Origin: an uncultured Candidatus Saccharibacteria bacterium
GTDB taxonomy: Bacteria; Patescibacteriota; Saccharimonadia; Saccharimonadales; Saccharimonadaceae
Direction: 5' to 3'
DNA length: 62,656 nucleotides
NCBI GenBank assembly: GCA_964442535.1
Contig: CAYTZL010000001.1
Location: 1 to 62,656, forward strand
Part shown: positions 1-32,341 of the stretch, one piece after another
Position numbering within the stretch: the first letter of the stretch is position 1
Layout of the letters: each line of letters begins with the position of its first letter
Position numbers and translations under genes: made by a program
The notes under the pieces: model-generated
Databases searched by the model: none
Seen by the model: the letters and a program-made list of their open reading frames with translations, nothing else
What the model was told of the DNA's origin: nothing

Positions 1-20
1 CCGCCCCGCACAAAGAATAA
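1..20 (-). repeat. Variable FISUMP/CLec cassette 1, 5' constant end only (runs off window start)
   Basis: Reverse complement is TTATTCTTTGTGCGGGGCGG, the invariant 5' end of the other cassettes. Confidence 0.8.
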
Positions 21-41
21 AAGTTGTGCTATAATAATCTT

Positions 42-137
42 GGGTGAGCGGCGACGTTGACTTTTCTTATATACTGGCGTAAAATGGGTGTATAAGAATA
101 TTTGAGTTAGCGTTTCTTGATAGAGACGCTAATTTTT
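42..137 (+). ncRNA. Candidate antisense sRNA overlapping the 3' end of the small-peptide gene
   Basis: TGcTATAAT at 27-35; hairpin TTAGCGTTTC-TTGATA-GAGACGCTAA followed by a T-run at ~107-137. Confidence 0.35.
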
Positions 138-190
138 ACTGTGCGTTCTAGACGTAAACGTCCGAGACATATAGCTACAACTATCGTCAT
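107..190 (-). CDS. 27-aa small peptide MTIVVAICLGRLRLERTVKISVSIKKR (candidate type I toxin-like)
   Basis: ATG at 190 with GGAGG at 195-199; hydrophobic N-terminus and basic C-terminus; a homologous copy starts at 14875. Confidence 0.45.
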   Translation of the reverse strand: MTIVVAICLGRLRLERTVKISVSIKKR

Positions 191-347
191 ACAGCCTCCA
201 TTTCTCCCACTCCCGATAAACTGATTAGATCAAGAGGTCGTCGCCCACCTACTCCCAGTAGTAGCACAAAATAAAAATTTTTAGCAAGCGCTAGCACGAT
301 GTTTTGACAAAAAAGGTTTTTATGGGAAAATATATAGATGCGTACCT

Positions 348-578
348 CTTATTCTTTGTGCGGGGCGGCCGCATAGATCCCAGCAATCAGCAGCTCAACC
401 TCGCTGGCTTGTACGGCTACTATTGGGCCTCCCGAGCCCACTCTAATATTAACAGTACCTATATCCTCAATTTCAATACCGGTGTCAATCCTTCCCTCTA
501 CGGCGGTCGTTTCAGTGGTTTTTCCCTTCGCTGCCTAATCCCTACCTCCTAGTCCTAAGCTAGGGAGGAAGGAGAGAA
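348..578 (+). repeat. Variable FISUMP/CLec cassette 2 (5'-truncated, DGR VR-like)
   Basis: Encodes LFFVRGG..YYWASRA..SLRCLIPTS* (stop 550-552) plus tail TCCTAAGCTAGGGAGGAAGGAGAGAA. Confidence 0.9.
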
Positions 579-619
579 AAACCGGCCAAAACAAACCGCC
601 CCGCCCGGCAAGCAGAACG

Positions 620-779
620 TGATTCGGAGCTAGAATTTCCTAGATTGGTGACTTTCTCCAACAAAACCCGGAATTCGAGAATAGAATTGAACTAGTTTGC
701 ATTCTAGTGAGGGAAGCGCGCCTATTGGGCGAGCGACCGAAACTAGAACTTGCAAAATAGCCAATTCTAACTCGAATTC
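620..779. repeat. Palindromic element family D
   Basis: Core GAGGGAAGCGCGCCTATTGGGCGAGC with inverted arms; near-copy at 25338-25517, fragment at ~13460-13492. Confidence 0.7.
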
Positions 780-1157
780 CTACTCCACCCGCAGTTTCTC
801 TGCCATACTCTCCATCTCCTCCGGCGTCATCTTCAGCGTCCTCTCCCCCGCCCAATTCTCATTCACCGGCAAAAGGTGCACATGCACATGCGGCACATCC
901 GTCCCCACCACCTTAATCATCGTCCTCTCCCCCAGCACCTCATCAAAATGCCTCGCCAGCATCTTCACCGTCGCCATCACCGCATTGTAATACTCATCAT
1001 CCAAATCATAAATCTTATCCACCTCCACCTTTGGCACCACCAACGTATGCCCCGGCGCCTCCGGCTCAATGTCAAGAAACGCAAACGTCTTCTCATCCTC
1101 ATAGATCTTATAGCACGGCAATTCCCCGTTAATTATCTTCATAAACACTGTACTCAT
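780..1157 (-). CDS. HIT family (histidine triad) hydrolase
   Basis: STVFMKII..GELPCYKIYED start, GHTLVVPK, HVHVH triad. Confidence 0.9.
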   Translation of the reverse strand: MSTVFMKIINGELPCYKIYEDEKTFAFLDIEPEAPGHTLVVPKVEVDKIYDLDDEYYNAVMATVKMLARHFDEVLGERTMIKVVGTDVPHVHVHLLPVNENWAGERTLKMTPEEMESMAEKLRVE

Positions 1158-1297
1158 CTTAACTCCTCATTTCTTCATGAACAGTCCAACCCCTATTGAC
1201 TCTTTTCATGAACACTTTACTACTTTTAACTCCCCACACTACTTTTCCCAATTATACCACAAAAATACCCCATATTAAAACCCGCGAAGGGGCTTTC

Positions 1298-1475
1298 TAT
1301 GGATGTGTATTCGTATATCTGACTGTATGAGGGTACTTTGCCTCTTTTCGCAGGGGGTGCGGAGTTACGACGAGCATTAGCGCCACGACCCTGTAACGAC
1401 AGGCGTCGTGGACGCGCCCCAAGAAAAGAGGTAAAGTCCCTCCATACAGACACATAACCACAAATACACACCCAT
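1298..1475. repeat. Palindromic element family B, copy 1
   Basis: Core GCAGGGGGTGCGGAG..GAGCATTAGCGCCACGACCCTGTAACGACAGGCGTCGTGGACGCGCCCC with long inverted arms. Confidence 0.8.
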
Positions 1476-1477
1476 AG

Positions 1478-1505
1478 AAAAGCCCCCGCTTTCGCGGGGG
1501 CTTAA
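1478..1505 (-). terminator. Intrinsic terminator after the SLH gene
   Basis: AAGCCCCCGC-TTTC-GCGGGGGCTT with an A-run on + (U-run on -). Confidence 0.7.
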
Positions 1506-1520
1506 TATCGCCAACTTTAA

Positions 1521-4500
1521 TTAGTTAGCAATAGACAGGAGGTTCTGGAAGATCTGCGCAACCTCAGCCCGAGTGGCCTGACCCTTAGGAGCCAGAGTCG
1601 TACTCGTACGACCCTTAATCACGCCGTTCTCCACTGCCCAACGCATAGCGTTAGTAGCATAGGAACTAACTTCCGTAGCATCAGTGTATCCGTTCAGGTC
1701 CATACCAGCACCCGGCTCACCAACATATCTCCACAGCATAGTAACCAGCTGTTCACGAGAAATGTCTGCAGTCGGATTAGAACCATCGCTCACGCCCTTA
1801 GACATCGCCCATTCGATGCCCTTGGCATACCAGGTGGAACCACCGTTGGTATCCACACCGTCATATCTCGCCAACACCGTCACTACCATCGCCCGAGTCA
1901 TCGGAGCGTTCGGAGAGAATGTAGTAGCGCTTGTACCATTAAACAGATCTCTTGCTGTCGCGAAAGCTACCGCGTTGGTCGCCCAGTGATTAGTCATATC
2001 GGCAAAACTCATACCTCTATCGACCAACTTCACCGTAGCACCATTCGCCACCGTCGCTACAACAGTATTACCTGCCACGATCGAATCCTTCATTACACTA
2101 TAAGTGCCATCCGGATTCTTAACCATCGCTACAGTACCCGCGGTCGCACCGCTAGCCGGAATCGCCACAGTTACGTTGTTTCCGTTCTCTGTCTTCACAG
2201 TCACGGTCTCAGCAGAGCTCTCGCTCTTCGTCACCGCTACCGTGTTCATCGACAGTTTCACGGGATCACCAGCCGCCGCTTCGACCGTTGTCGTCTTCAG
2301 CTCGACCGTTGTCTCGGTCTTGCCGTTCGCGTCAGTATTCACGGTGGTCTTTGTGCCGTCCTTCTGGGTAATTGTCACCACGGAAGAACCGTCAGGATTC
2401 TTTGTCGTCACGGTCACAGCCCCAGTGTTCGGGTCTGTAGTTGTAGTCGTATCAGGCTTCTGCGTCGGAGTACCAGAGTTACCGGAAGATCCGCTATGGC
2501 TACCGCCACCGCCGGTCTTCGTACCAGCCGCCCCACAAATCGGGCAAGTAGCACTGGTCAGAATATCAGCATGGTTGCCGCCATTCTTATCGCAGTCACT
2601 CTGGAACTTTGCCAGCGTGTAATCACAATCAGTGTGCCTACAATCGCCGTTGGTGTCAAAGCTATTCTTGTCATGCGCCGCGAAAGTGTTATTGTGGCCA
2701 GTGCCAACAAATCCGCACTCCTCGCACTTCTGAGTCGTCAGCAGGTTCGCATGCGTCGCAACCAGCGGGCAGCTCTCCTGGAACTGAGTCAGGGTGTAAT
2801 GACAAGTGTCATGCTTGCAGGAACCATCCTCGTTAAAGCTACCCAGATTATGCGCATCGCGCACCTCGGTATGCTTCTCACCCGGCAGTCCGCAAGTCGG
2901 ACAACTATGGGTAGTCAGGATATTCGCATGGTTAGCTGCATCGGGGCAGCCCGGGCAATTCGGATTGCCGCAGACGCCATTGTTCCAATCATGAACATGT
3001 GTTTCCACCATCACGAAAGTCGTCAGGTGGTCAACACCAAACGTAGCGTTACCATTCTCGTCCACCAGCACAATACCGCCGATGCTCTTCAGGGACTTAT
3101 CAGTGTCATCGACATAGTAGACCTTCACACCTTTAGCCCCGTCAGGAGCCTTCATGGTGATCAGAATCTCATTGTCCAGACCAGTAATAGTCGCCTCGGT
3201 ATTACCCTTGCTCAGAGTCACATCGAGCGCCACTGCGTTGTCGACATCGACAACAGCACCCTGGTCGTCCTTGTAAACGTCCTGTCCGCCTTCCTGAGTA
3301 GCAGTCAGCTGATCCTTCAGGTCGGAACTAGTCACATTAGCCAGATCCACTACCACGCTAGCAGTAGTATCACTATCCTGTGCCATCGTTACCGCTTCAA
3401 TCGGCAGTGCCACCGCACCAGCCGTGTTCATCACAACCAGCGTCACCGGCGCACTCACAGAAGTCGTCTGACCTTCGCTGTCTTCAACTTCCACGGTCTG
3501 AGCATCAACCAAAGCCTTCACGGTCGCCGCTGCCAGGGTCAATGTTGCCGCACCGACATCACCAGTAGAATCGGCCATATCAACAACCAAATTCACCGGA
3601 GCCACCGGGCTCACATCATCCCCAGTCCGCGCGTCAGTAATCGCACTTGCTACATCAGTACTCACAGGCTCCGCCTTCACAGTACCATTGTCAACAGATT
3701 TCTCTACTTCCAAAGGCACCGTCACCGGAGCAACATAGGTACCAACCAGACCACACTCGGGGCACTTCTCACCCTTCAGAATAGTCGCATGACTATCACT
3801 CAGGGAACAACCCGGGCAGGTGCCCGCGCCGTCGCACACGCCGTCAGTCCAATGATGAACGTGCTTCGTCCCCACGAAACCACAGGTCTCGCAAGTTTCG
3901 CCAGCTACAATGCTGCTATGATTGCTCGTATTCGGGCAAGCGATACCACAAACCTCGCACACGCCGGACTTATCCTCAGCCCAAGTATGCGGAGTATGCA
4001 GTCTCTGATACTCAACCATCGTAATGGTCACATCGCAACCATCAGCCTTACAGGTCGGCACGCCATTCACCAACTCAAAGTCAGCAAACACATGCGTATA
4101 ACCAGCCGGATGTGCCGGAGTCACAACCTGCGTAGTAGTAACTTCTACCACCTGATACTTAGCGGCGTTACCGTCGCCAGTTTTCAGAACAATTTTACAG
4201 GTATTATTTGTCACCGGCAGCCACAACATTAAGTTGTCCGCAGCAACGTTCCACTCGGGATGCGTAGCATCATCGTAGCCATACTGGCCACCCTGATTGT
4301 CGGCACCTGTCACCAACTTCCAATCAGCAGTCGTCAGACCAGTGATAGGAATAGTCAGGTGATAATTCGGCGTACCAGTCGGCTGACCATCCTGAGGATC
4401 GCCACCGATTGTCTTACCAGGCTCAGAAGTCAGCGTTACCGCCACCTTCACCACGTCGCCTTCGGTTGTCACCACCACCGCGCCAGTACCGTTCTTCACG

Positions 4501-6190: not shown

Positions 6191-6340
6191 AACTTAATCA
6201 ACAGTGTAAGGGGAACCTAATTACTTTTTGAAGAGGGTACGGAGCTACGGCGAGTATTAGCGCGCGGCACCCGCGACGGCGGGCTGACGCGACGCGCCTC
6301 GAAAAGAGTAATTAGGTTCCCCTTACACTATTTGTTAAGT
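6191..6340. repeat. Palindromic element family B, copy 2
   Basis: Diverged core (GAGTATTAGCGCGCGGCACCCGCGACGGCGGGCTG) between arms AGTGTAAGGGGAACCTAATTACT / AGTAATTAGGTTCCCCTTACACT. Confidence 0.75.
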
Positions 6341-8699: not shown

Positions 8700-8878
8700 T
8701 CTCCTTCCAAGCCCACCAATTAGTCAACTAAGCTACCGCAACATCTCAACATCCGCCACTCCCCCAGCATAACAAAATTTCTCCCAAAATAACAAGCACA
8801 GGCACAATGTTTTTACAAAAAAGTCCCCCTCAAAATCACATCATTTCTCAAAAACCGCAAACAAACATTTTTCAATCC

Positions 8879-8928
8879 AACTTGTAAACGCTTTACAAGT
8901 TCAACCTCATTTTAACAGAGGTCAAAAA
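8879..8928. promoter_or_regulatory. Palindromic box AACTTGTAAA-CGC-TTTACAAGTT plus ACCTC..GAGGT hairpin (copy 1 of 5)
   Basis: Also at 15064, 23455, 30091 and 31988, always downstream of a FISUMP stop codon. Confidence 0.7.
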
Positions 8929-8981
8929 CACTAAAATTTCCTTTAATTAAACACTTTCGCCCCATTTTTCTGTCTTTCTCG

Positions 8982-9240
8982 CTCTTCCGTCCACCAGACT
9001 AGTCACTCTTCTCCTTCCTCCCTAGCTTAGGACTAGGTGGTAGGGATTAGGCAGCGAAGGGGATAGCCGATGTAGCGAGAGTTGCTATAGGACGGATCGA
9101 CGCTAGTATAGAAGCGGAGGTAGTAGGCGTCGTAAGTATTAGAGCCGGCTCGGGACGACCAGTAGAGGCCCCACTGACCAACGCTCTGCAACGGGCTAGA
9201 ATCGTTAGAGACGACGTTGCCGCCCCGCACAAAGAATAAG
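8982..9240 (-). repeat. Variable FISUMP/CLec cassette 3 with extended tail
   Basis: LFFVRGGNVV..LYWSSRA..PLRCLIPTT* (stop 9033-9035) plus tail ..GAGTGACTAGTCTGGTGGACGGAAGAG. Confidence 0.9.
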
Positions 9241-9272
9241 TATCCTCCCTATTCTATGCTATAATATATACT

Positions 9273-12221
9273 ATGAGTTTCACAAAGAGCTACGAACCGG
9301 GAGATTTCGAGCCACGCATCTACGCCGAATGGGAGCGTACCGGCGCTTTCCAGCCTAAAAAACCGCTAATCGATTCCAGCGAATCCGACAGCAATAACTG
9401 TTTTTCCATTGTCATGCCGCCCCCGAACGCTAACGGTAATCTCCACATCGGCCACGGCCTCACTATCGCCCTCGAAGATTCCCTTACTCGCTACTACCGT
9501 CTCCGCGGCAACTCCGCCTGGTATATCCCCGGCGCCGACCACGCCGGCTTCGAAACTTGGGTCGTCTACGAACGCGCCCTCGAAAAAGACGGCCACTCCC
9601 GCTTCGAATTCTCCCGCGACGAACTTTACTCCCGCGTCTGGAACTTCGTCGAAGAACAACGCGGCAACATGGAGCTCCAAGTCCGCGCCCTCGGCGCCTC
9701 TTGTGCTTGGCCCGATTTAACCTTCACTCTCGACGAAAACGTCGTCTCCCGCGTCTACAAAACCTTCGAAAAAATGTGGAACGACGGCATGATTTACCGC
9801 GGCGAAAAACTCGTCAACTTCTGTCCTAAGCATCAAACCGCCTTCGCCGACATCGAAGTCGAACACGAAGACGAAACCGGCCACCTCTGGGACATCGCCT
9901 ACGAAATCGTCTCCACCCCCGAAACGGGAGTAATAGATGACGATTCGAAAGGCAGTAGTCAGAATAACTCTGATAGTTCTCGTCGAGCGACTAAAAGCGC
10001 GTCAAAGCTTGACGCGCAGAATGAGAGCCCCGTAAAGACGGGCGCTCGAATGGGTCGCTCGCGAGAATCTATCGGAGTTGATTCTGACAAACTTCCTTCC
10101 GAAATCATCATCTCTACCACCCGACCCGAAACCCTCTTCGGCGACGTTGCTATTGCCGTTAACCCTTCTGACTCCCGCTACACCGACCTTATCGGCGGCC
10201 TCGTCAAACTCCCCCTCACCGACCGCCTCATCCCGATCATCGCCGACGAACACGCCGACCCCGCTTACGGCACCGGCGCCGTTAAAATTACCCCCGCCCA
10301 CGATTTCGACGACTTCGAAGTCGGCGAACGCCATAACCTCGAGCGCATCCAAGTCATCGGCGAAAACGACAAAATGCTCGCCACCGCCGGCCCCGACTAC
10401 GAAGACCTCACTACCGCCGAATGTCGCGAAAAAGTCCTCCACGACCTCGAGGAACAAGGTCTCCTCCGCGGCGAAAAAGAAATCGTTCACTCCGTCGCTC
10501 ACTGTTACAAATGCGGCACCGTCATCGAACCCACCCTCAAAAGCCAATGGTTCATCGACGTCAAACGCCTCGCCGCCATGGCCATCGAACACCTCGAAGC
10601 CGGCGAAATCAAGTTCCACCCCGCCAACAAGAAAAAGGTCTTAATTAACTACCTTCAGGGCCTCAAAGATTGGAACATCTCCCGCCAAATCCCTTGGGGC
10701 ATCGCTATCCCCATGTTCCACCAAACCGAAACCGACAAAGCCCCCGAATGGATCTTCGACACCCGCACAAACCTCACTAAAATCGAAGTCGGCGGCGTCA
10801 ACTACTACCGCGACGAAGACACCTTCGATACCTGGTTCTCCAGTTCCCACTGGCCCATCGTCTGCACCGACTGGCTCGAAGGCACCGACAATCCTTATTA
10901 CCCCCTCAGCGTCATGGAAACCGGCGCCGACATCCTCTTCGCTTGGGTCGCCCGTATGATCATGATGGGTGTTTATGTAACGGGTGAAGTTCCTTTTAAA
11001 GAAGTCTATCTTCATGGTCTAGTACTTGACGCACATGGGAAGAAAATGTCTAAATCCAAGGGCAACGTCATCAACCCCATCGACCTCGTCACCAAATACG
11101 GCTCCGACGCCTTCCGCCTCGGCATCCTCCGCGGCCGCTCCGCCGGCATGAACCAAGCCTTCTCCGAAAACTCCGTCATCTCCGGCCGCAACCTCTGCAA
11201 CAAACTCTGGAACGTCGCCCGCTTCATCCAGTCCATCGTCGATGACTCTTCTAAAACCACTTCTGGCAAATCTCAGTCTTCGCCCGTTGATGAGCATCTA
11301 GTCGGAGCCGATTCATACGCAATCGCCTCCCCGGCATCGTCCCGGGAGCGCGAAGCTCGCGCGACAGAACGAGACACCCGTAAAGACGGGCTGTCGAGTG
11401 GGATGCCGAGAGGCGCATTGCGTGATGAATTGACTCACGAATATACTACCAACAACATGGGCGAAGACTGGATTTGCCGTGAATTAACTGCTTGCAAAGA
11501 AGAAATCGAAGACGATTTCAAGTGTTACCGTTTCTCCGAAGCCGTCGAAACTCTCTATACTACCATCTGGGACAAATACGCCGACTGGTTCATCGAAAGC
11601 CAAAAAATCTACAAAAACATCCCTCTCCTAAAAACTACCCTTGAGATGATCCTCAAAATGCTTCACCCCTTTGCTCCTTTCGTCACCGAAGCCATCTGGC
11701 AAAGCCTTAGCTGGACCGATGGCCTCCTTATCACCTCAAAATGGCCCTCCAGGCTTCAATACGACCCCATTTCCGCCCAGCAATTCGAAACCCTTATGTC
11801 TATCGTGACCGAAATTCGAGCCACCGTACAGGCCCTCCCAGCGCCCTCTAACGGCCAAAAATGGACCCTGCTTTACGGCAAAGACGCCATTGTTGACGAC
11901 AACCAGCTTCTCACCGCTAAATTATCCGGTGTCGCCTCTGTTATTAGTTGCGAAGGTCAGCCTCGCGGCCTCCGCCTCGCCCTCGCAAACCACGAGCTCT
12001 ATCTCGACGTCCCCGCCGACATCGTCGCCAAGCACCGCCACAACCTCGAAGAGCGCATCCTCGCTGTCGGTCGCGAGCTCGACACTCTTAACGCCCGCAT
12101 GCTAAACCCCAGCTACGTCGACAAAGCCCCCGCCCACCTTGTCGAACAAACCCGCAACGCCATTTCCGAAAAATCCGCCCTCATCGACCGCCTCAAACGC
12201 GAACTCGAAGTCATCCAGTAA
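9273..12221 (+). CDS. valS: Valine--tRNA ligase with two in-frame palindromic insertions
   Basis: PPPNANGNLHIGH (HIGH), TTRPET, GTGAVKITPAHD, DWNISRQIPWG, KMSKS, C-terminal coiled coil. Confidence 0.95.
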   Translation: MSFTKSYEPGDFEPRIYAEWERTGAFQPKKPLIDSSESDSNNCFSIVMPPPNANGNLHIGHGLTIALEDSLTRYYRLRGNSAWYIPGADHAGFETWVVYERALEKDGHSRFEFSRDELYSRVWNFVEEQRGNMELQVRALGASCAWPDLTFTLDENVVSRVYKTFEKMWNDGMIYRGEKLVNFCPKHQTAFADIEVEHEDETGHLWDIAYEIVSTPETGVIDDDSKGSSQNNSDSSRRATKSASKLDAQNESPVKTGARMGRSRESIGVDSDKLPSEIIISTTRPETLFGDVAIAVNPSDSRYTDLIGGLVKLPLTDRLIPIIADEHADPAYGTGAVKITPAHDFDDFEVGERHNLERIQVIGENDKMLATAGPDYEDLTTAECREKVLHDLEEQGLLRGEKEIVHSVAHCYKCGTVIEPTLKSQWFIDVKRLAAMAIEHLEAGEIKFHPANKKKVLINYLQGLKDWNISRQIPWGIAIPMFHQTETDKAPEWIFDTRTNLTKIEVGGVNYYRDEDTFDTWFSSSHWPIVCTDWLEGTDNPYYPLSVMETGADILFAWVARMIMMGVYVTGEVPFKEVYLHGLVLDAHGKKMSKSKGNVINPIDLVTKYGSDAFRLGILRGRSAGMNQAFSENSVISGRNLCNKLWNVARFIQSIVDDSSKTTSGKSQSSPVDEHLVGADSYAIASPASSREREARATERDTRKDGLSSGMPRGALRDELTHEYTTNNMGEDWICRELTACKEEIEDDFKCYRFSEAVETLYTTIWDKYADWFIESQKIYKNIPLLKTTLEMILKMLHPFAPFVTEAIWQSLSWTDGLLITSKWPSRLQYDPISAQQFETLMSIVTEIRATVQALPAPSNGQKWTLLYGKDAIVDDNQLLTAKLSGVASVISCEGQPRGLRLALANHELYLDVPADIVAKHRHNLEERILAVGRELDTLNARMLNPSYVDKAPAHLVEQTRNAISEKSALIDRLKRELEVIQ
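9958..10088. repeat. Palindromic element family A inside valS (insertion 1)
   Basis: Arms GTCAGAATAACTCTGATAG / CTATCGGAGTTGATTCTGAC; core GCGCGTCAAAGCTTGACGCGC..CCCGTAAAGACGGG. Confidence 0.85.
11305..11436. repeat. Palindromic element family A inside valS (insertion 2)
   Basis: Arms ATTCATACGCAATCGCCTC / GAGGCGCATTGCGTGATGAAT; core GACACCCGTAAAGACGGGCTGTCGAG. Confidence 0.8.
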
Positions 12222-12556: not shown

Positions 12557-13089
12557 CTCTTCTCTCTTCTCTTCCGTCCACCAGACTAGTCACTCTTCTC
12601 TCCTTCCTCCCTAGCTTAGGACTAGGGGGTAGGGATTAGGCAGCGAAGGGAATAGCCGCGGTAGCGATAGACGTAGTTGTAGCCGTAGGACGGCCTAACG
12701 GCGCTACTATCGAAGTAGAGGTAGTAGGCGCCGCTTGCGCCAGAGCTGGCTCGCGATGACCAGTAGTCGCCGCGCTGGCCAACGTTCTGTAACGGGTTAG
12801 AACTGTTAGGGTCGACGATGCCGCCCCGCACAAAGAATAAGGGACTTAGGACAATGTTGTAAGTATTACTATTAACGCTACTCGTACCAGACAGACTACT
12901 CGCTACACCATACTGGGTCAGCATATACCCGAACGTACCCTTCGTAGTATTATTCCCAGAACTCGGCAATTTCCAGTTCTTGGGACAGATGCTCCCACTC
13001 GCATTAGCATTCGTGATACTTCCTCCAGTCCCCGCCGTCGCCGCATTCCATTGGTAGTAATTCCCAGCAAGGTAGTGCTTAATACACAC
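12557..13089 (-). repeat. Variable FISUMP/CLec cassette 4, long form (from HYLAGNYYQWNAATAG)
   Basis: 155-codon open frame 12622-13089 with SICPKNWKLP and variable end ..LRCLIPTP*, plus extended tail. Confidence 0.9.
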
Positions 13090-15169: not shown

Positions 15170-15442
15170 TCCTCTCTTCTCTTCCGTCCACCAAACTAGT
15201 CACTCTCCTTCCTCGAAGCCTTAGGACTAGGTGGTAGGGATTAGACAGCGAAGGAAATTGCCGTTGTAGCGATAGTCGCTGCCGGACGGATTGACGTAGC
15301 TATCAAAGTAGAAGTAGTAAGCGTAGGCAGTGCTAGAGGAGGCTCGCGAGGACCAGTAGCTGCCCCACTGGCCAGCGTTCCTGAATGGCGCGCTAGAGTT
15401 GCCTGGAGTGACATACCCGCCCCGCACAAAGAATAATTCCAT
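15170..15442 (-). repeat. Variable FISUMP/CLec cassette 5 (tandem with cassette 6)
   Basis: MELFFVRGGYV..FLRCLIPTT* 15227-15442; tail slightly altered. Confidence 0.9.
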
Positions 15443-15448
15443 TGCCTC

Positions 15449-15690
15449 TTCTCTCCTTCCTCCCTAGCTTAGGACTAGGTGGTAGGGATTAGACAGCGAA
15501 GGGAACGGCCGTAGTAGCGGCTGACGTAGTAGTTGCTGGACGGACTGACGTAGCTACTATCGAAGGTGAGGCTGTAGGCGAAGCTAGAGCTAGAGTCGGC
15601 TCGCGACGACCAGTAGCGGCCCTCCTGGCCAGCGTACCACAACTGCTGACTGTTCGAATTGATGTTACCGCCCCGCACAAAGAATAATTC
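15449..15690 (-). repeat. Variable FISUMP/CLec cassette 6
   Basis: ELFFVRGGNI..SLRCLIPTT* (stop 15475-15477) plus standard tail. Confidence 0.9.
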
Positions 15691-16116
15691 CCTCCTCTCC
15701 AACCAAAACCCACCCCTTGACAACCCGCCAAAACACTTCCTAATTACCGAACAACCCCCACAACATACACTCTTCCCAACCTTTCCGCATTTCCAAATTC
15801 CGCCGCCCACCTCAATCCTTCCCCACCGCCAATTTTCCCTCCTTCGTTCCCTTTTCCCCGATTTCCCACCGTCAATTCCCCGCTCCTTCCCTCTCCCCCT
15901 CTCTTATATCTCCCCCAAAATACCCCTTCAACTCGCTCACTCATCTAAATTCACCGTAAAACCATCACCACACATTTCCCACCTTTTTCAAGCACTACCA
16001 AAATCCGCCCCTCCTCCAAAAATGTTGTACTTTTTACAACAAACCACCAACTTTCCCTTCCCTGAAAAAACATTCCCACCCCTATAATTTTGCGCAAAAT
16101 CCTCCCATCAAAACTC

Positions 16117-16145
16117 TTGACATATCATCACGCTCGCGCTAAAAT
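16117..16145 (+). promoter_or_regulatory. Near-consensus sigma70 promoter with no long ORF behind it
   Basis: TTGACA-17 bp-TAAAAT. Confidence 0.6.
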
Positions 16146-16609
16146 AAAAGCAACGGATCAATTCATTGTGGGCATGGTGGTTCGGACAAGCACAAACGAT
16201 ATTTTACCCAAAATCGTAAAAATCCATTCGGTTTTTACAACCTTTATTTTTGGTTACGTCAATTTATTTCACGCTTCGTTATGGGCATAGTTTTTAATGC
16301 GCACTCTCCACCAAAAGAGAGTATTTTTGCTACCACAACACCAAACAGGGAACATCACCCTCAAGCACCCCCATTAGCTCAAGCCCTAACAAAAAATCAC
16401 CTCAGCACTACCATCAACTCAAAGCTCAGAACAGATAACGTCGCTCTCAACACCGCATCTCAGCCCAACCCCACATCACCCTCACCCAACACCCTCATCA
16501 CACGTAACAGGGAACTAAAAAATCCCCGCCACTCAACGGGGAACTAACAATCATAACTTAACAGGGAACTACTAACAAAACATCCACTCAATAACTACAC
16601 ACGGCAATC

Positions 16610-17019
16610 GCTAACGCCAGCAGTTCCATCTGTCCCAAGAATTGGAAGTTGCCGAGCTCCGGGGATAATACTACTAAGGGAACCTTTGGGTATATGTTGA
16701 ACCAGTATGGTGTAGCGAGTAGTTTGTCTGGTACGAGTAACGTTAATAGTAATACCTACAACATCGCCCAGAGTCCCTTATTCTTTGTGCGGGGCGGCTA
16801 CGTCAATCTATACTACCCTAGTGAGCCCTTCAGGTGGGCTGGGTCTGATGGCTATTACTGGTCCTCTCGAGCCTATTCTGATACTAGCTACGCCTACTAC
16901 CTCTACTTCGATAATAGCATCGTCGCTCCGTCCTACGGCAACGTCGCTCGCTACCTCGGCTTTTCCCTTCGCTGCCTAATCCCTACCACCTAGTCTTAAG
17001 CTAGGGAGGAAGGAGAGAA
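16610..17019 (+). repeat. Variable FISUMP/CLec cassette 7, long form
   Basis: ANASSSICPKNWKLP..SLRCLIPTT* (stop 16991-16993) plus tail; 16637-17019 identical to 21229-21611. Confidence 0.9.
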
Positions 17020-17026: not shown

Positions 17027-17154
17027 ATAGGAGTGTAGCTTTAGGGATTTATGAGAGACTAAAAGAGTGACCAAGCTGGTCACTCAGAACGACGACCCTG
17101 TGAAGACAGGCGTCGGAGTGGGTCTCGAGAAAATCCCTAAAGCTACACTCCTAT
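17027..17154. repeat. Palindromic element family A, intergenic
   Basis: 24-bp perfect arms ATAGGAGTGTAGCTTTAGGGATTT; core GAGTGACCAAGCTGGTCACTC..GACCCTGTGAAGACAGGCGTCGG. Confidence 0.85.
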
Positions 17155-21154: not shown

Positions 21155-21611
21155 ACCAATGGAATGCGGCGACGGCCGGGACTGGTGGAACGATTACGAA
21201 TGTTAATGCCAGTGGGAGTATCTGTCCGAAGAATTGGAAGTTGCCGAGCTCCGGGGATAATACTACTAAGGGAACCTTTGGGTATATGTTGAACCAGTAT
21301 GGTGTAGCGAGTAGTTTGTCTGGTACGAGTAACGTTAATAGTAATACCTACAACATCGCCCAGAGTCCCTTATTCTTTGTGCGGGGCGGCTACGTCAATC
21401 TATACTACCCTAGTGAGCCCTTCAGGTGGGCTGGGTCTGATGGCTATTACTGGTCCTCTCGAGCCTATTCTGATACTAGCTACGCCTACTACCTCTACTT
21501 CGATAATAGCATCGTCGCTCCGTCCTACGGCAACGTCGCTCGCTACCTCGGCTTTTCCCTTCGCTGCCTAATCCCTACCACCTAGTCTTAAGCTAGGGAG
21601 GAAGGAGAGAA
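21155..21611 (+). repeat. Variable FISUMP/CLec cassette 8, long form (from QWNAATAGTGG)
   Basis: Open frame to stop 21583-21585 plus tail; 383 bp identical to cassette 7. Confidence 0.9.
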
Positions 21612-23500: not shown

Positions 23501-23582
23501 GAAAGACCAAAATTTCCGTTAATTAACCAATTTTATCCATTTTTCCGCCTCTTCTTGACTCCCTGCCACCGCGTCTTCTTCC

Positions 23583-23869
23583 TTCCGTTCACCAGACTAG
23601 TTACTCTTCTCTCCTTCCTCCCTAGCTTAGGACTAGGTGGTAGGGATTAGGCAGCGAAGGGAAAAGCCGTTGTAACGATAATTCTCGCGGGCGAAAGATG
23701 GAATGATGCTGGCATCGAAGACGAGGCCGTAGGCGATGAGTGTATCCGAGAGGGTTCGTGAAGACCAGTAATAGCCAATCTCGCCAGCGTTGTAGAAATG
23801 ATTGGGGTCGCCAGGTAGAATACCGCCAGGAAACACCCCACCGCCCCGCACAAAGAATAAGGGACTCTG
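23583..23869 (-). repeat. Variable FISUMP/CLec cassette 9
   Basis: QSPLFFVRGGGVF..SLRCLIPTT* (stop 23633-23635) plus extended tail. Confidence 0.9.
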
Positions 23870-23898
23870 AGTAACCCAAAAAAGACACAACATCAGAA

Positions 23899-24300
23899 TC
23901 AGGCTAATTTCGCCGTCCCATTCTCCTTCGCCAACGCCTTATCAAACGTCCACAACGGCTCCGCCTTATTCATCGTCGCCTCAATCGCCAAATAACAATC
24001 CGTAAAAGACAACTTCGGATGATGTAAGTACATCCAAAACAACTCAAACCCCATCAAATCGCTAGCCCTCACATTCGGCCTAGAAATAATCCTCATCAAC
24101 GCTCCAACTATCGTCTCTCGATCCACCTCCATCCGCGTCAGCACAAAAACCACCTCCGACAGCATCGCATCCGACAACAAATACACCACATCATCCCGCT
24201 CCAGCAACTTTATCGCCCGCTCATACTGCTCCGGGATATCCTCCCACAGAAGCCTCAGAATTATATTAGTATCCAGCGACTCATACTTAACGGACCCCAT
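23899..24300 (-). CDS. PIN-domain (VapC-like) toxin
   Basis: LDTNIILR, EVVFVL, LSFTDC, TFDKAL; overlaps the upstream antitoxin gene. Confidence 0.85.
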   Translation of the reverse strand: MGSVKYESLDTNIILRLLWEDIPEQYERAIKLLERDDVVYLLSDAMLSEVVFVLTRMEVDRETIVGALMRIISRPNVRASDLMGFELFWMYLHHPKLSFTDCYLAIEATMNKAEPLWTFDKALAKENGTAKLA

Positions 24301-24658
24301 ATTTTTCCTTCATCCCCGCAACATTCTCCGGCAAATTATCGAAATAATCATGGTACTGCTTCAACGTCCACCCCGCCGTTTTACCAACCATCTCCTTAGT
24401 CTTCGGGGAAAGCGATTTTCGCCACTCTGTCATCTCCTCACGCAAACTCCGCTGTTTAGCTATCTCAAAGTACCCCTTCCGAGGCATAAACATCAATACG
24501 TCCCCAGGCTTCCATTCCAACTCCTCCCGCAACTCCTTCGGAATTGTCACCTGCCCATTGGCCGATATCTTTAAACGATATGGCTTTTTCTGCTCACCAA
24601 AATCACCAGCTCTCGCCACCCGCGCCATCGGCACCCGTTCAGCCACATCCGCTCCCAT
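24287..24658 (-). CDS. AbrB/MazE/SpoVT-family antitoxin
   Basis: KISANGQVTIPKELREELEWKPGD. Confidence 0.85.
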   Translation of the reverse strand: MGADVAERVPMARVARAGDFGEQKKPYRLKISANGQVTIPKELREELEWKPGDVLMFMPRKGYFEIAKQRSLREEMTEWRKSLSPKTKEMVGKTAGWTLKQYHDYFDNLPENVAGMKEKYGVR

Positions 24659-24830
24659 TTACGCTCCCTCCATTATTATAAATACCTATCACTTTTAAAA
24701 CCTTACGATCTTCTTTAATTTTACCATATCATTTTTAATTTTTCAACACAATTTTAACTATCATACCATTTTAAAAATCCTCCTCACAAACTAAACCACC
24801 ACCATACGAAAACCCTCACTCCTCTTTTTC

Positions 24831-25072
24831 TTCTCTCCTTCCTCCCTAGCTTAGGACTAGGGGGTAGGGATTAGGCAGCGAAGGAATTGGCCAAGGTAGC
24901 GATTGAGGTTGTTGGACGGGCTGACGCCGCTATTCCAGAAGTTGAGCCTGTAGGCGTTACTAGTATTAGAGTAGGCTCGGGCGGACCAGTAATAGCCGCT
25001 CAGGCCAGCGTCCTGTAATGGGCTAGAACCGATAGAGTTGACGAAGCCGCCCCGCACAAAGAATAAGGGACT
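24831..25072 (-). repeat. Variable FISUMP/CLec cassette 10 (tandem with cassette 11)
   Basis: SPLFFVRGGFV..FLRCLIPTP* (stop 24857-24859) plus tail. Confidence 0.9.
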
Positions 25073-25074
25073 TT

Positions 25075-25320
25075 TTCTCTCCTTCCTCCCTAGCTTAGGA
25101 CTAGGTGGTAGGGACTAGGCAGCGAATGGAACGGCCGCCGTAGCGAAGGGCGTCGTTAGACGGATTGACGTAGCTATCATTGAAGTAGAGGTAGTAGGTG
25201 TAGGTAGAGCTAGAGTAGGCTCGAGAGGACCAGTAGGAGCCGAGCTGGCCAGCGAGCTGGAAGGGCGTAGATGTGCCGTTAGAGTACACCCCACCGCCCC
25301 GCACAAAGAATAAGGGACTC
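25075..25320 (-). repeat. Variable FISUMP/CLec cassette 11
   Basis: SPLFFVRGGGV..SIRCLVPTT* (stop 25101-25103); its tail abuts cassette 10. Confidence 0.9.
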
Positions 25321-25337
25321 ACCCAACGAGCAAAACA

Positions 25338-25517
25338 TGATTCGGAGCTAGAATTTCCTAGATTAGTGATTTCTCCGACCAACGCGCACCTACCAGGCGA
25401 ACAGAACGTGATTCGGAGCTAGAATTGAGCTAGTTTGCATTCTAATGAGGGAAGCGCGCCTATTGGGCGAGCAACCGAAACTAGAACTTGCAAAATAGCC
25501 AATTCTAGCCCGAATCA
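25338..25517. repeat. Palindromic element family D, copy 2
   Basis: GATTCGGAGCTAGAATT twice; arms TGATTCGGAGCTAGAATTG / CAATTCTAGCCCGAATCA; same core as 620-779. Confidence 0.7.
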
Positions 25518-25522
25518 ACAAA

Positions 25523-25930
25523 TCACCCTATTAGCTCTGCACTTTTCGCCTGCTTAGCTAGCTTCCGATCAAACGTCCGTAGCGGTTCCGCCTGATTCAA
25601 CTCCGCATAGGCCGCCAAACAACAATCATTAAACGATAATTTTGGATGCTTCAAATACATCGGAAACGCCCGTTCAAACAAAGCCTTATTATAGTTCAAC
25701 GAAAAATCCTCCAACGTCGCCGTCAAAGCATCCACAATCCCCGGCCTCGTCCAGTGATAAATCGTCTGCAAAACATATGCCGCCTCCGTCACCGCCAAGT
25801 CCGCAACTTCATAAGTCACCCCCTGCCGCATAAACATATCCTGTATCTTCAACCCCAGTTCCGGAATATCCTTCAAAATTATCCGTAAAATCACACTAGT
25901 GTCTAACGATTCACGAGTCTTAAACGCCAT
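25523..25930 (-). CDS. PIN-domain (VapC-like) toxin, paralog of 23899-24300
   Basis: ESLDTSVILR, MYLKHPKLSFNDC, TFDRKLAK. Confidence 0.85.
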   Translation of the reverse strand: MAFKTRESLDTSVILRIILKDIPELGLKIQDMFMRQGVTYEVADLAVTEAAYVLQTIYHWTRPGIVDALTATLEDFSLNYNKALFERAFPMYLKHPKLSFNDCCLAAYAELNQAEPLRTFDRKLAKQAKSAELIG

Positions 25931-26252
25931 ACTTCTCCTTCAAATACGCCTTCGTCTCCGGCAAATTATCAATATATTCATGGTACTGACTCATCGTCCA
26001 TCCCGCCGTCTTCTTCGCAAACTCCCTCTGCTCTGGCGTCATCCGCGCCTCTTGCTCCGCACGAATCTCAGCCAACTTCGCAAAAGTCCGCTTAATTTTC
26101 TCCTCCCGCGTCTCTGCCTTCTCCACCGTCACCACCGCCTTATCCGTATCAAACACCACCTTATCCCCCGGTTTCAAATTCAACCTACTCCGCAGCAAAC
26201 TCGGCGCCGTAAACTGATATCCCGCCGACAACGTCGCTTCCACTCTTGGCAT
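25920..26252 (-). CDS. AbrB/MazE-family antitoxin, paralog of 24287-24658
   Basis: ATLSAGYQFTAP..LRSRLNLKPGD; shared C-terminus KTAGWT..QYH.Y.DNLPE..KEKYGV. Confidence 0.8.
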   Translation of the reverse strand: MPRVEATLSAGYQFTAPSLLRSRLNLKPGDKVVFDTDKAVVTVEKAETREEKIKRTFAKLAEIRAEQEARMTPEQREFAKKTAGWTMSQYHEYIDNLPETKAYLKEKYGV

Positions 26253-26438
26253 AATATTATTCCTTTGATTAGTTCTCCTTCTTTGATTCTATCATATCAC
26301 TTTGAACTTTACAAGCCCAAAGTCCCACAAAAACACTTTCTATCCTAAAACCTCAAAGTCCCAAAAAAGTCCTTTGAACCCCAAAGCTTCAAAGCCCAAC
26401 CCTCAAAAAGTCCCCCAACAGGGGGACTTTCCACTAAA

Positions 26439-27536: not shown

Positions 27537-27730
27537 GACGATACCTCCTAGTAGTCTAGTTTTTTAAAGTCCGAGAGATCAAATCTCGTTTATCATTTTA
27601 ATACAAAATACCAATAATGTCAATTCCACCACTTTCTGGCACTCAGGTATTGAACTGACGAGGATAGCGAGTAAAAAGAAAACGCAGTTTTCTTTTTCGA
27701 GCGACGCAGGCAGACAAGTTTTGAGTGCTT

Positions 27731-27773
27731 TTGGCACTCAAAACTTGACAGTGCCAAGCAACTGCGCTAATAT
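27731..27773 (+). promoter_or_regulatory. CIRCE-like operator overlapping the groESL promoter
   Basis: TTGGCACTC-N9-CAGTGCCAA (CIRCE consensus TTAGCACTC-N9-GAGTGCTAA); TTGACA(27745)-17-TAATAT. Confidence 0.65.
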
Positions 27774-27794
27774 AGAGGTACGAAAGGAGTTATT

Positions 27795-28049
27795 ATGCAA
27801 CTAAAACCACTATCCGACCGCATCGTCGCTTTGAAAGAGCAGCCTATGGAAACTACTAAATCCGGCATTCTGCTCGGCGAGGCTAAGGAAGCTCCCGCTT
27901 ACGCCGTTGTCGAAAGCGTCGGCCCCGATGTAAAATCCGTCAAAAAGGGCGACAAGATCGTTTACAAAAACTATTCCACGACCGATGTTAAACTCGAGGA
28001 CAAAGATTACATCATCGTCAAAGAAGAAGACGTCCTCGCCACTTTATAA
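27795..28049 (+). CDS. groES: Co-chaperonin GroES
   Basis: LKPLSDRI, TKSGILL, VKKGDKI, EEDVLA. Confidence 0.95.
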   Translation: MQLKPLSDRIVALKEQPMETTKSGILLGEAKEAPAYAVVESVGPDVKSVKKGDKIVYKNYSTTDVKLEDKDYIIVKEEDVLATL

Positions 28050-28206
28050 CATATAATCTATATTAACAACCAATCTCGAGACAACGTTTTGCCCCTGCCG
28101 AAACCGACCTTGACGGCGCCACGTCATCACTACCGCCGCTAAGGACTATTCTAACAGATCGGGTAAAACATTTCTCGACAAAATAATTTTTAACATCCGA
28201 TATAGC

Positions 28207-28320
28207 AGTTTCATGCTTCAAGTTTAAGAGAATAAAAGCGAGTCAAAGCTTGACTCGCAGAGTGAGACACCCGTAAAGACGGGCTGTCGAGCGGTTCTCT
28301 CAAACTTAAAGCATGGAACT
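28207..28320. repeat. Palindromic element family A between groES and groEL
   Basis: Core GCGAGTCAAAGCTTGACTCGC..GACACCCGTAAAGACGGGCTGTCGAG; arms AGTTTCATGCTT / AAGCATGGAACT. Confidence 0.8.
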
Positions 28321-28349
28321 AACTCATATCGAGATTTGAAAGGATTACT

Positions 28350-29966: not shown

Positions 29967-30086
29967 AGTACAAGACTCTTTAATCTAGATTAAACTAGCT
30001 TAAGACAATCTAAAGTAACTCAAGTACGTAACACAACCAAATGTTGGCGAACCCCTCCGGCTCGCCAATATTTTCCCCAATTTCGA

Positions 30087-30135
30087 GTTGAACTTGTAAA
30101 CGCTTTACAAGTTCAACCTCACTTTAGCAGAGGTA
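30087..30135. promoter_or_regulatory. Palindromic box copy 4 (14-bp arms)
   Basis: GTTGAACTTGTAAA-CGC-TTTACAAGTTCAAC, ~60 bp past the stop of the full-length FISUMP gene. Confidence 0.7.
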
Positions 30136-30172
30136 AAAAAGGCGCAATTCGCCATTAATTAACCACTTATTA

Positions 30173-31750
30173 CTAAAAAGTCGGTACTAAGCAGCGAAGA
30201 GAATGACCAATATAGCGATAGTTACTAAAGCTAGACGGGTTAATACTAGTATAAATGCTGAGGTAGTACGCTTGACTAGTTCTAGAAGCCGCTCGTGACG
30301 ACCAGTAATCACCTAAGCCACCAGCTACCCAAAATTTAGTACTACTATGAGGAAGAACATTCCCGCCCCGCACAAAAAACAATGGTGATAAAGCAATATT
30401 ATAAGTGTTCTCATCAGTAGAACCAGTCCCTATAAGACTTCCTTTGTCCCATGCTGACGCTAGCCCATACTGTTGCAATAAGTAAGCATAAGTTCCTTCT
30501 GTAACGGTGTCTATGTCCGTTGCACTGCTCGGCAATTTCCAGTTCTTTGGACAGATACTTCCACTTGCATCAGCATCTACAATCGCTTTGCCCGTCCCTG
30601 CCGCCGCTGTGTTCCAAGCATAGTGATTTCCAACGAGGTAATGGGCGTCATACTCAACGTCCGTATACGTCGCTCCGTTGTTCTTAAAAAAATTAGGATC
30701 AGTGCTCGGGGTTCGACTACCAATCACGGTAAATTGATCAGGACAAACGCTTGGGCCCATATTGTTATTCGAACATCCTGTTGTTGTGGTCGGATTAATA
30801 ATAACGTAATCCCCCATATCCCATGAATATGTACTCGCATAATTATTGTATCCGTACCCTAAGGTAGTCGCATTTATCGTCGTTACCGTCGTTTGCGGCG
30901 GATAGCTAGAGCTCGAAGCCCAGTCACTCTTCACGTCCGACGTCGCCGTAGTGACATTGGACGTCGAGATATTAAAGTCTAGGTTCTGGCTCATCCAGCA
31001 ATTCCCATCCAACATTTTCGTCACCCAATATTTCTTCCCATCTCGCACATCCGCTAAAAACGCTGTATCATTTACATTTGCTGCCTTGCATATTGCCGGA
31101 GTTAATTGCTGCATCTGCGTAATTCCGCCAAAAGTCGCTACAGTACTAGTAACCGTCCTCGGCTGCGCAACTACGCTAAGCGTTACGGTATTCCCGTAAA
31201 AGTCCTCCGCTGCAGAATTGTTTACCCTCGCTCCATAGAATAGCGTTAATTTCTTCGTAACACTACTACTGGTTGCTCCTCCAGTCCCGACACTCTGTTG
31301 ACTAGTAGTCATCGCTTTAAAACTCGTACTAGGATTGTAACTTGCTTCGCTATCTCCTAATACTCCATAATATCCCCACTCATTACTCATACTACCGAGG
31401 GTTTTAGATGAAGTAATGCTGGGGATCTTATGATTAGTGTTATTTCTTCCAGTTAGATTAGTATTACCGGAAACATACACAGTATATCCATCAGTATTAC
31501 CTACGGTAATTGTAGCAGTTTGTGATAATACCTTACCTGCTTCGTCTGGATTGGTCGAAGCATTAGCGGCGTCGAGGTCGGTTTGGATGGTGCCGGAACT
31601 GAGAGACAAAGAAACCGAAGAGCTAGTTTGAGAAGTTGTCGTCGTAGTCGTATTCAGCGGTATCTCCCACCCATTCGCCGCGCTAACTTCCTCCGCCCAA
31701 GCCAAAGCCGCTACTACTCCCATTATTACCCCTACTATCCTTTTCCGCAT
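30173..31750 (-). CDS. Full-length secreted protein with C-terminal FISUMP (Fib_succ_major)/C-type-lectin-like domain
   Basis: ATG 31750 with GGAGG; signal peptide; DVRDGKKYWV..GNCWMSQNL, GNHYAW, ICPKNWKLP, DYWSS, SLRCL. Confidence 0.85.
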   Translation of the reverse strand: MRKRIVGVIMGVVAALAWAEEVSAANGWEIPLNTTTTTTSQTSSSVSLSLSSGTIQTDLDAANASTNPDEAGKVLSQTATITVGNTDGYTVYVSGNTNLTGRNNTNHKIPSITSSKTLGSMSNEWGYYGVLGDSEASYNPSTSFKAMTTSQQSVGTGGATSSSVTKKLTLFYGARVNNSAAEDFYGNTVTLSVVAQPRTVTSTVATFGGITQMQQLTPAICKAANVNDTAFLADVRDGKKYWVTKMLDGNCWMSQNLDFNISTSNVTTATSDVKSDWASSSSYPPQTTVTTINATTLGYGYNNYASTYSWDMGDYVIINPTTTTGCSNNNMGPSVCPDQFTVIGSRTPSTDPNFFKNNGATYTDVEYDAHYLVGNHYAWNTAAAGTGKAIVDADASGSICPKNWKLPSSATDIDTVTEGTYAYLLQQYGLASAWDKGSLIGTGSTDENTYNIALSPLFFVRGGNVLPHSSTKFWVAGGLGDYWSSRAASRTSQAYYLSIYTSINPSSFSNYRYIGHSLRCLVPTF

Positions 31751-31798
31751 AAGCCCTCCTTTGGTTGTTATCAACCCTGACGGAGCGCCACCCCCAAA

Positions 31799-31942
31799 CA
31801 AAAAAGCGACACCGCAAGGTGTTCTACTCCCATTCGTAACTACAGCTTAACGCCAGCTACTTATGCGATGTCGCTTAAGTTGGCGTTAAGAACTATTGTA
31901 GTCAAACTGTAATCACATTGAGAGTAGAACATCCTCATTATA
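31799..31942 (-). promoter_or_regulatory. Extended -10 promoter and highly structured 5' leader of the FISUMP gene
   Basis: TGaTATAAT at 31937-31945; pairings TGTTCTACTC/GAGTAGAACA, CTTAACGCCA/TGGCGTTAAG, and alternative AGCGACA/TGTCGCT followed by a U-run. Confidence 0.55.
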
Positions 31943-31987
31943 TCACGAAATCAAGGCATTTTTAGATTTTTTCTCACCACAAAATCC

Positions 31988-32035
31988 AACTTGTAAACGC
32001 TTTACAAGTTCAACCCCATTTTAACAGAAGTCAAA
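31988..32035. promoter_or_regulatory. Palindromic box copy 5
   Basis: AACTTGTAAACGCTTTACAAGTT. Confidence 0.7.
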
Positions 32036-32097
32036 AAGTCCAAATTTTTGCTTAATTAACCGTTTTTGCCCACTTTTTTCTTGCTTTCGCCTCCAAA

Positions 32098-32341
32098 AAC
32101 TAGTCACTGTTCTCTCCTTCCTCCCTAGCTTAGGACTAGGTGGTAGGGATTAGGCAGCGAAGGGAATGGCCACGGTAGCGACTGAAGTAGTAGGACGGAT
32201 CGACGCCGGCAGTAAAGTAGAAGTAGTAGGCGTAGGTAGTATCAGAGTAGGCCCGAGAGGACCAGTAGTAGCCAGTACGGCCAGCGCTCTGGAACGGCGA
32301 TGAACCACCGGAGTAAATGAAGCCGCCCCGCACAAAGAATA
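32098..32341 (-). repeat. Variable FISUMP/CLec cassette 12
   Basis: LFFVRGGFIY..HSLRCLIPTT* (stop 32136-32138) plus tail. Confidence 0.9.

Follow-up and report, generated by a model that had tools for sequence, protein, structure and literature searches.

The window analysed here, a stretch of 62,656 nucleotides (nt) at the start of contig C1 (CAYTZL010000001.1) in a Candidatus Saccharibacteria genome (G000; GenBank assembly GCA_964442535.1), contains twelve short units, hereafter called cassettes, in which a variable region (VR) is enclosed by near-invariant ends, as well as one full-length paralog of the FISUMP family (Table 1). The assembly is a short-read metagenome-assembled genome (MAG) of 1.01 Mb in 67 contigs, 90.7% complete, and matching DNA occurs in rat-gut and feces sequencing runs. 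A previous reading of the window from its letters and open reading frames (the sequence-only reading) had described twelve such units, and motif counts bear this out: the 5' 19-mer matched perfectly 12 times in the window, where chance would give 0.04, and a further copy with 2 mismatches lies in the full-length paralog, while the 3' 20-mer occurred 11 times (0 expected). All 11 complete units are free of stop codons and translate as FFVRGG...W...RCL over 62-70 codons, and their VRs (186-210 nt) are without exception multiples of 3, in agreement with the whole-codon length differences reported earlier. The upstream coding portion attributed to the units was present in three (units 12839, 16779 and 21371, with 151-238 nt of constant region) but not in the other 8 of the 11 complete units, where at most 15 nt precede the motif. 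Likewise, the one identical pair in the window was recovered (units 16779 and 21371, identical over 142 nt upstream and over 241 nt from the motif to the end of the tail), but the remaining middles are not all unique, as the VR of unit 32341 has an identical twin on contig C28.

Table 1. Cassettes and associated features in the window (IMH, initiation of mutagenic homing sequence).
Positions	Strand	Feature
1..21	-	5' conserved motif of the twelfth unit; the contig ends at the first variable base
348..578	+	Minimal cassette made up of 5' motif, 62-codon VR, IMH, stop and purine-rich tail
8982..9240	-	Minimal cassette located directly upstream of valS; extended tail
12569..13077	-	Long cassette (unit 12839): 238 nt constant region, VR, extended tail
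15180..15436	-	Minimal cassette, second member of a tandem pair; variant tail
15446..15687	-	Minimal cassette, first member of the same tandem pair
16628..17019	+	Cassette (unit 16779) with 151 nt constant region; VR same as unit 21371
21155..21611	+	Cassette (unit 21371) with 216 nt constant region; VR same as unit 16779, 3' flank different
23582..23874	-	Minimal cassette with long VR (70 codons) and extended tail
24829..25074	-	Minimal cassette abutting the tail of the next unit
25075..25320	-	Minimal cassette, first member of the second tandem pair
30173..31750	-	Full-length paralog of 525 aa with hydrophobic N-terminus, predicted beta-sandwich and FISUMP domain; the last ends in an aged VR without tail
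31798..31931	-	5' leader of the paralog, structured by a long hairpin and an alternative terminator-like pairing; common to the gene family
32099..32341	-	Minimal cassette (unit 32341) upstream of the paralog's promoter, same strand; VR same as a C28 cassette with other flanks

A short-read MAG in 67 contigs, many of them broken at sequences of this family, could in principle give rise to such units as an artefact, with variants of one locus pasted into different contigs. In a run of the same study (not an independent strain), however, unitigs covering window positions 9039-9569 and 15482-16666 showed 0 differences and link two cassettes to their unique flanks, and in strains of other studies the cassette boundaries lie at the same sites as in G000. 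Misassembly is thus very unlikely and the artefact explanation largely refuted, with hardly any probability left to it.

The sequence-only reading had connected the variability to a diversity-generating retroelement (DGR), and the parts of such an element were found. A DGR reverse transcriptase (RT) of 397 aa with a YVDD motif is encoded at C23:10296-11489; its best match in the Protein Data Bank (PDB) is 8ub7 (E 4.5e-23), which we take to be the Bordetella DGR RT. It was recovered by tblastn with the RTs of relatives, as a PF00078 family search of the genome gave only an Abi-like RT on C32 (C32:2470-3993, 502-507 aa), a second, unrelated enzyme of the Abi/defence type. The C23 RT is preceded by a tRNA-like sequence and by a 305-aa gene, which overlaps the RT start and is conserved in relatives; this putative accessory gene had no Avd match in Pfam or NCBIfam and a weak Atlas lead to bAvd (0.77). 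Three complete, AAC-rich templates (on C3, C26 and C28) and two cut by contig ends (C5 and C6) were identified, all remote from the RT, so that the predicted template exists but not, as had been proposed, next to the RT, beside which neither a template nor a fresh target was found. The three complete templates start at the cassettes' own 5' motif, and all templates diverge from VR sequence at one and the same 3' point, their 3' end differing from that of the VR.

Mismatches between cassettes and their best template at codon positions 1 and 2 were concentrated at adenines (1,433 of 3,236, a rate of 0.44, versus 0.14 for C, 0.13 for G and 0.11 for T), and the adenine rate exceeded the non-adenine rate in 73 of 74 cassettes, including 11 of 11 in the window. 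The cleanest case, C6:38317 against the C3 template, shows differences at 21 of 51 adenines and at 3 of 140 non-adenine positions. Entropy across cassettes reached 1.4-1.5 bits at columns with an adenine in any template, compared to 0.3-0.4 at other first and second positions. The RT, the putative accessory gene, the remote templates and the adenine bias support, at the level of sequence, a DGR origin of the cassettes. A target of phage BPP-1, as reported in PMC3240598, needs a hairpin downstream of its VR but can do without the sequence upstream, which gives each cassette the outline of a minimal DGR target; the cassette tail folds as an imperfect stem of about -6 kcal/mol, unlike the 8-bp GC stem with GRNA loop described there. 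The VR stands at the 3' end of an intact protein-coding gene in the full-length paralogs but in none of 77 cassettes, which are thus not ordinary DGR target genes. Within a truncated unit of 267 codons (C6:38100-38930, minus strand), which has an ATG of its own and perhaps a ribosome-binding site, lies the cleanest product of the C3 template.

A genome-wide census, as the sequence-only reading had suggested, gave 78 units with 5' motif, IMH and tail at the DNA level, of which 77 are 5'-truncated and one is a full gene (on C14). A scan with the protein motif gave 112 units, made up of 3 templates, 75 units that carry the shared tail and 34 others, full-length genes for the most part. Among the 78 DNA-level units, 76 are in frame without a stop, one contains a stop and one has its middle swapped for an unrelated hairpin repeat; this last unit (C6:39069-39270) keeps both ends at near-normal spacing, and the same repeat is found upstream of unit 32341 in the window. 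Gene-like sequence before the motif is shorter than 10 nt in 48 of the 75 tail units, and most of their tails stop 37-44 nt past the last conserved codon. The arrangement of cassettes relative to genes was strand-specific: 26 of 43 genes have a same-strand cassette at most 700 nt upstream of their start, one has a cassette on the opposite strand, and 5,000 strand shuffles gave a mean of 13.7 and a maximum of 23 same-strand pairs. Close cassette pairs face away from each other in 10 of 18 cases.

Sequence comparison also supports exchange of VRs between loci, with breakpoints in the conserved ends. Two cassette pairs in the genome have identical VR cores (16779/21371 and C1:32341/C28:10673), the ends of the identical segments being non-nested; in the second pair the identity spans 200 nt, starting with the first base of the motif and reaching into the IMH, and does not extend upstream at all (0 nt). 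Cassettes C16:12749 and C25:1367 share 203 nt of flank and the 19-nt motif, and diverge at the first variable base. Across six flank families (24 cassettes), VR differences at adenine columns were 0.545 within and 0.565 between families. Candidate agents of exchange and mobility were also surveyed. The genome encodes RecA and RuvB, and two tyrosine recombinases, one of them approximately 700 nt from a C5 cassette; no Y1 transposase was found in the 91%-complete genome, and target-site duplications did not exceed chance (mean 3.49 versus 3.37 +/- 0.13 in 57 cassettes, units with a constant region or short tails being left out). A mechanism in which a circle is excised between a gene and the cassette upstream of it, and then reintegrates, was rejected, as the full-tail genes and the truncated units with gene-specific ends that it predicts are nearly absent.

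One cassette allele could be followed in other strains. The VR at 9040-9240 was recovered in all four runs of four other studies with 0, 0, 0 and 1 differences, and the adjoining valS differs at 6 of 310, 9 of 342 and 6 of 275 positions in three of those runs. In runs X5 and X13 the valS-side match of the contig carrying the allele ends at position 9251, and the allele contig was covered 1.6-2.2 times as deeply as the flanks, which hints at a second copy, although depth is not copy number. For this one cassette, the allele is stable and probably moves as a unit.

Many VRs have aged since leaving their template. When transitions were scored at positions common to all 3 templates, cassettes gave 200/1,996 for synonymous changes (10.0%) and 32/2,072 for non-synonymous ones (1.5%), with 0 to 13 per cassette, while mismatches in the non-coding tail amounted to 1.0% across cassettes and were about as frequent in the 20 most T-rich, that is aged, cassettes (6 of 437) as in the 20 least T-rich (4 of 391). 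In 28 template copies of four relatives the corresponding figures were 33 of 903 (3.7%) synonymous and 16 of 682 (2.3%) non-synonymous, and no copy had more than 3. The synonymous excess is not readily attributed to template drift, although templates of this genome outside the assembly may have contributed to it. Aged, constrained VRs on pristine tails suggest that selection acted on the encoded protein once the VRs had left the template, whether they served as donors or sat in a gene prior to copying; either route would imply traffic with expressed genes.

The expressed partners would be the full-length members of the FISUMP family, of which the genome has 53 genes or fragments (45 with an N-terminus), approximately 75 kb in total. 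The window paralog had already been recognised in the sequence-only reading, and its assignment holds, with a TIGR02145 score of 43.6 bits (cut-off 41.65; the C14 gene scores 50.1 bits). Identities between 27 complete paralogs range from 35 to 81%, and in the Atlas the paralogs match Saccharimonadota clusters at 0.96-0.98, with PF09603 on 34-84% of members. Residues 35-205 are confidently predicted as a pilin-like beta-sandwich, for which the CfaE/CfaB chaperone-usher pilins are the best, if middling, fold match (Z 7.4, root-mean-square deviation 3.1, 122 residues aligned); the predicted C-terminal domain (residues 373-525) has a predicted local distance difference test (pLDDT) score below 50 and is unusable, and a profile search of PDB sequences with the protein family gave no match. 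Wu et al. (PMC5758913) grouped Fib_succ_major VRs with CLec2 DGR targets (category d), and it is by this grouping that the FISUMP C-terminus is given a putative C-type lectin fold. On these grounds, the full-length paralogs may be adhesins. At least 30 family genes are preceded by the leader, in which the alternative terminator-like pairing is conserved and the long hairpin differs from gene to gene (z < -2 in 29 of 29 folded leaders; median -7.6); the leader also precedes target genes of the relatives G258 and G045, and the leader at window 31798-31931 had no match in Rfam up to E 1.

Full genes differ widely in third-position T (0.26-0.82), and 10 of 32 are template-like (at most 0.38). Among the 12 freshest of 35 genes and fragments, 8 match the cassette end 18-35 nt deep, beyond the template's 13 nt. 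Since paralogs with template-like codons carry cassette-type sequence past the template homology, conversion into paralogs appears to have taken place, and the recipients look like a family of some 45 paralogs rather than one expression site. No single expression site with both conserved ends was found among the assembled genes; as live targets lie at contig breaks in 3 of 14 loci of relatives, such a site may have escaped assembly. Donation by a cassette to the adjacent gene was considered and is unsupported, as the downstream gene is no more similar to it than other genes are.

Orthologous RTs (E at most 1e-100) were found in 56 of 301 genus genomes, the relatives in question being Ca. Saccharibacteria. 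In G014, a canonical DGR, the RT (70% identical to the C23 RT) adjoins a template and a target, and template and VR differ at 20 sites, 20 of which are adenines in the template. The DGRs of G014 and others of the genus are alike to that of G000 in RT (63-77% identity), in related template and target motifs and in a purine-rich target tail, but there the template adjoins the RT, which it does not in G000. Live targets beside the RT in relatives (L117, L125 and L130, 3 of 14 loci, including that of G014) end at contig breaks and have purine-rich tails like those of the cassettes. At the loci examined in a sister group (RT 74-77% identical), covering part of each genome, 12 (G258), 7 (G094), 5 (G045) and 7 (G052) template copies, partly mutated and often in tandem, accompany few VR genes. 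Tandem arrays of unlike templates with a spacing of approximately 430-480 nt are seen at L048, L049, L050 and L051 (G094:C63, G258:C4 and C14, and G045:C31), where the templates are partly adenine-mutated and have a variable stretch of about 9 nt right before the fixed 3' end. Synteny with the tail-bearing gene of G258 leads to an empty site in G000. Cassette DNA gave one weak match among 40 relatives, and exact-motif scans of metagenome and genome collections gave none, near-identical genomes possibly being absent from the material searched. A relative of 1.1 Mb (G204) has 84 FISUMP profile matches, compared to 1-16 in four others.

G000 shares with characterised DGRs (Bordetella BPP-1 and the chromosomal multi-target elements of Treponema and Legionella) an RT with a candidate accessory gene upstream, an AAC-rich template, adenine-biased changes, a C-terminal VR in a Fib_succ_major-type domain, an IMH unlike the template end, a downstream tail that may form a hairpin, and remote targets. 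It differs in that the template is detached from the RT and exists in 3-5 unlike copies, in having 77 truncated VR units and about 45 paralogs, and in that VRs also pass from locus to locus in unchanged form. At most eight local and seven non-adjacent target genes are listed in a survey of 372 DGRs (PMC5758913). Among silent-cassette systems, msp2/p44 of Anaplasma phagocytophilum, whose small genome has approximately 100 truncated donor pseudogenes, hypervariable in the middle and conserved at the ends (PMC4534519), is similar, as are Borrelia vls and Neisseria pilS, in its many truncated in-frame copies, conserved ends and variable middle; in G000, by contrast, the diversity appears to be DGR-written, no single expression site was found, the single snapshot contains no donor-recipient identity, and the organism is a Saccharibacterium and not a vertebrate pathogen. 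Saccharibacteria are a group of epibionts. That the combination of a DGR with silent cassettes is not a described system, as the sequence-only reading had supposed, agrees with the literature covered (including PMC8144416, PMC4891356 and 10.1101/2024.11.15.621889), in which neither DGR-derived silent cassettes nor multiple templates are described in Saccharibacteria; Paul et al. (2017) on DGRs of the Candidate Phyla Radiation, supplements and most subscription papers were outside its scope.

Taken as a whole, the sequences point to a real DGR-derived cassette system with exchange between loci, which would work like a DGR coupled to an msp2-type library. The explanation that we favour, by a modest degree, is that the truncated DGR target ends are an allele library, redistributed by recombination among cassettes and more rarely into the roughly 45 paralogs. 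The units would be promoter-side-truncated copies of a chromosomal DGR target end (VR, IMH and tail) with adenine-biased mutations, their alleles being written by the DGR RT and accessory gene on C23 with the remote templates, and one or a few tail-bearing sites would be rewritten by retrohoming at any time. The sequence pattern suggests that VR bodies then relocate without a letter changed, breaking at the 19-nt 5' motif and in the IMH and tail; gene conversion of the RecA/RuvB type would be the mover, and would also reach the paralogs. The cassettes are putatively silent, the leader may pick the expressed paralog, and a host bacterium, a phage or mucosal antibody would be the putative ligand. 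Recognition of host cells or phages would be as plausible a driver as the immune selection implied by the term antigenic variation in the sequence-only reading. A candidate for a live site lies at the window's left end: the commonest overlap between contig ends is 55 nt (26 ends), the left end overlaps other places by 22 nt only, so that its continuation probably branches, and contig C56 (region C56:1-60) begins at a VR end with a 23-nt overlap. Window positions 1-21 and the start of C56 may flank one polymorphic, live unit.

Several observations weigh against this explanation. Differences from the assembled templates at bases other than adenine amount to 16%, and most cassettes thus appear to derive from other or older templates. 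The absence of stops and the whole-codon indels are weak evidence of selection, because adenine changes in AAC, AAT, TAC and CAG codons cannot create stops and because indels of 3 nt beside AAC runs are a known DGR trait (PMC5758913). While exchange between loci, as envisaged in the sequence-only reading, is supported, its single adhesin recipient with identical constant region and tail was not found among the assembled genes: the constant region of the long cassettes is at best 80-93% identical to any full gene, the complete tail is on no assembled full gene (C14 has 21 nt of it), and none of 2,368 cassette-gene pairs in this single snapshot (32 genes) share 40 nt of VR core, the maximum being 30. 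As this donor-recipient match was sought and not found, the system is not classified as a classical antigenic-variation system. The mean similarity rank of the gene downstream of a cassette was 23.1 (19.5 expected; 22 pairs). Some aged genes also match the cassette end 28-29 nt deep, with 4-6 mismatches, and the deep 3' matches may therefore in part reflect shared ancestry of the last codons. The site at 9040-9240 is not often rewritten, judging from its unchanged allele across studies. Decay is represented by one stop-bearing cassette, one hairpin-interrupted cassette and a lone tail on C17, and several repeat families are interspersed in the intergenic DNA, so that cassettes could have spread passively.

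The cassettes could instead be a non-functional by-product, either mis-resolved retrohoming intermediates or decapitated targets, spread together with dispersed intergenic repeats and with a protein-level constraint acquired in the source gene prior to copying. The 5' ends of the cassettes match the 5' boundary of the template (less than 10 nt of upstream homology in the 48 of 75 tail units), relatives multiply templates in the same truncated manner, decayed units exist and no exact donor-recipient pair was found. We nevertheless regard such an origin as unlikely, since the frame and a near-pristine tail (1.0% mismatch) persist in units whose aged VRs bear as many as 13 synonymous transitions, since 76 of 78 units are intact in a 1-Mb genome, and since the same-strand placement upstream of 26 of 43 genes is non-random. 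Traffic could also run in one direction, alleles expressed and selected in full genes being copied out to cassettes and rarely or never back. T-rich cassette VRs share their codon usage with aged gene VRs and are located on fresh tails and recently duplicated flanks, as such an archive would predict, and the non-nested ends of the identical pairs suggest a longer common source; yet the 10 most aged cassettes mostly find their best matches in other cassettes (57-79%), and an archive that is never read would have no evident selective basis, which makes one-way traffic improbable. Slightly more improbable again is that each cassette is rewritten in place, in parallel, and acts at the nucleic-acid level, where it would titrate retrohoming or yield a small RNA or short peptide, with nothing passed on to genes. 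The minimal-target anatomy (PMC3240598), the unrelated VRs within identical flanks, the window's first unit, which breaks off at the first variable base, and C6:38317 with its own ATG and fresh VR would all fit live targets or decoys, but one allele is the same in four other studies (0-1 differences), identical VRs at different sites are impossible from independent mutagenic events, and many cassettes bear aged synonymous changes.

Apart from the cassettes and their paralog, the window contains two pairs of PIN toxin and AbrB-type antitoxin genes interleaved with three of the cassettes (23899-26252) and five type IV secretion system (T4SS) pilin genes clustered with PrgI and a TraG-type ATPase near dnaA (36644-51478). 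Dispersed palindromic intergenic repeats (families D6, D8, D9, D12 and D13) are located at 1319-1431, 6224-6308, 8850-8967, 9985-10065, 17053-17133 and other positions.

The library of alleles that we favour allows a more specific proposal, offered tentatively and at somewhat less than an even chance, of a repertoire in two tiers. A DGR with several partly pre-mutated templates would make alleles; selected ones would be banked as dozens of minimal cassettes and shared between strains as units. Gene conversion would bring them back into some 45 pilin-like adhesins with a switchable RNA leader apiece, amounting to hypermutation with memory. To our knowledge, DGRs described so far overwrite their targets without preserving earlier variants, and silent-cassette systems do preserve them but lack a mutator of their own. 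Surveys of DGRs by RT neighbourhood miss systems of this kind, as there is no template or fresh target beside the RT here. If the two are coupled in this genome, a 1-Mb bacterium commits approximately 75 kb of paralogs and 77 cassettes to a heritable, recallable binding repertoire, and host tracking by Saccharibacteria, as well as the birth of DGR targets and templates, would become testable questions.

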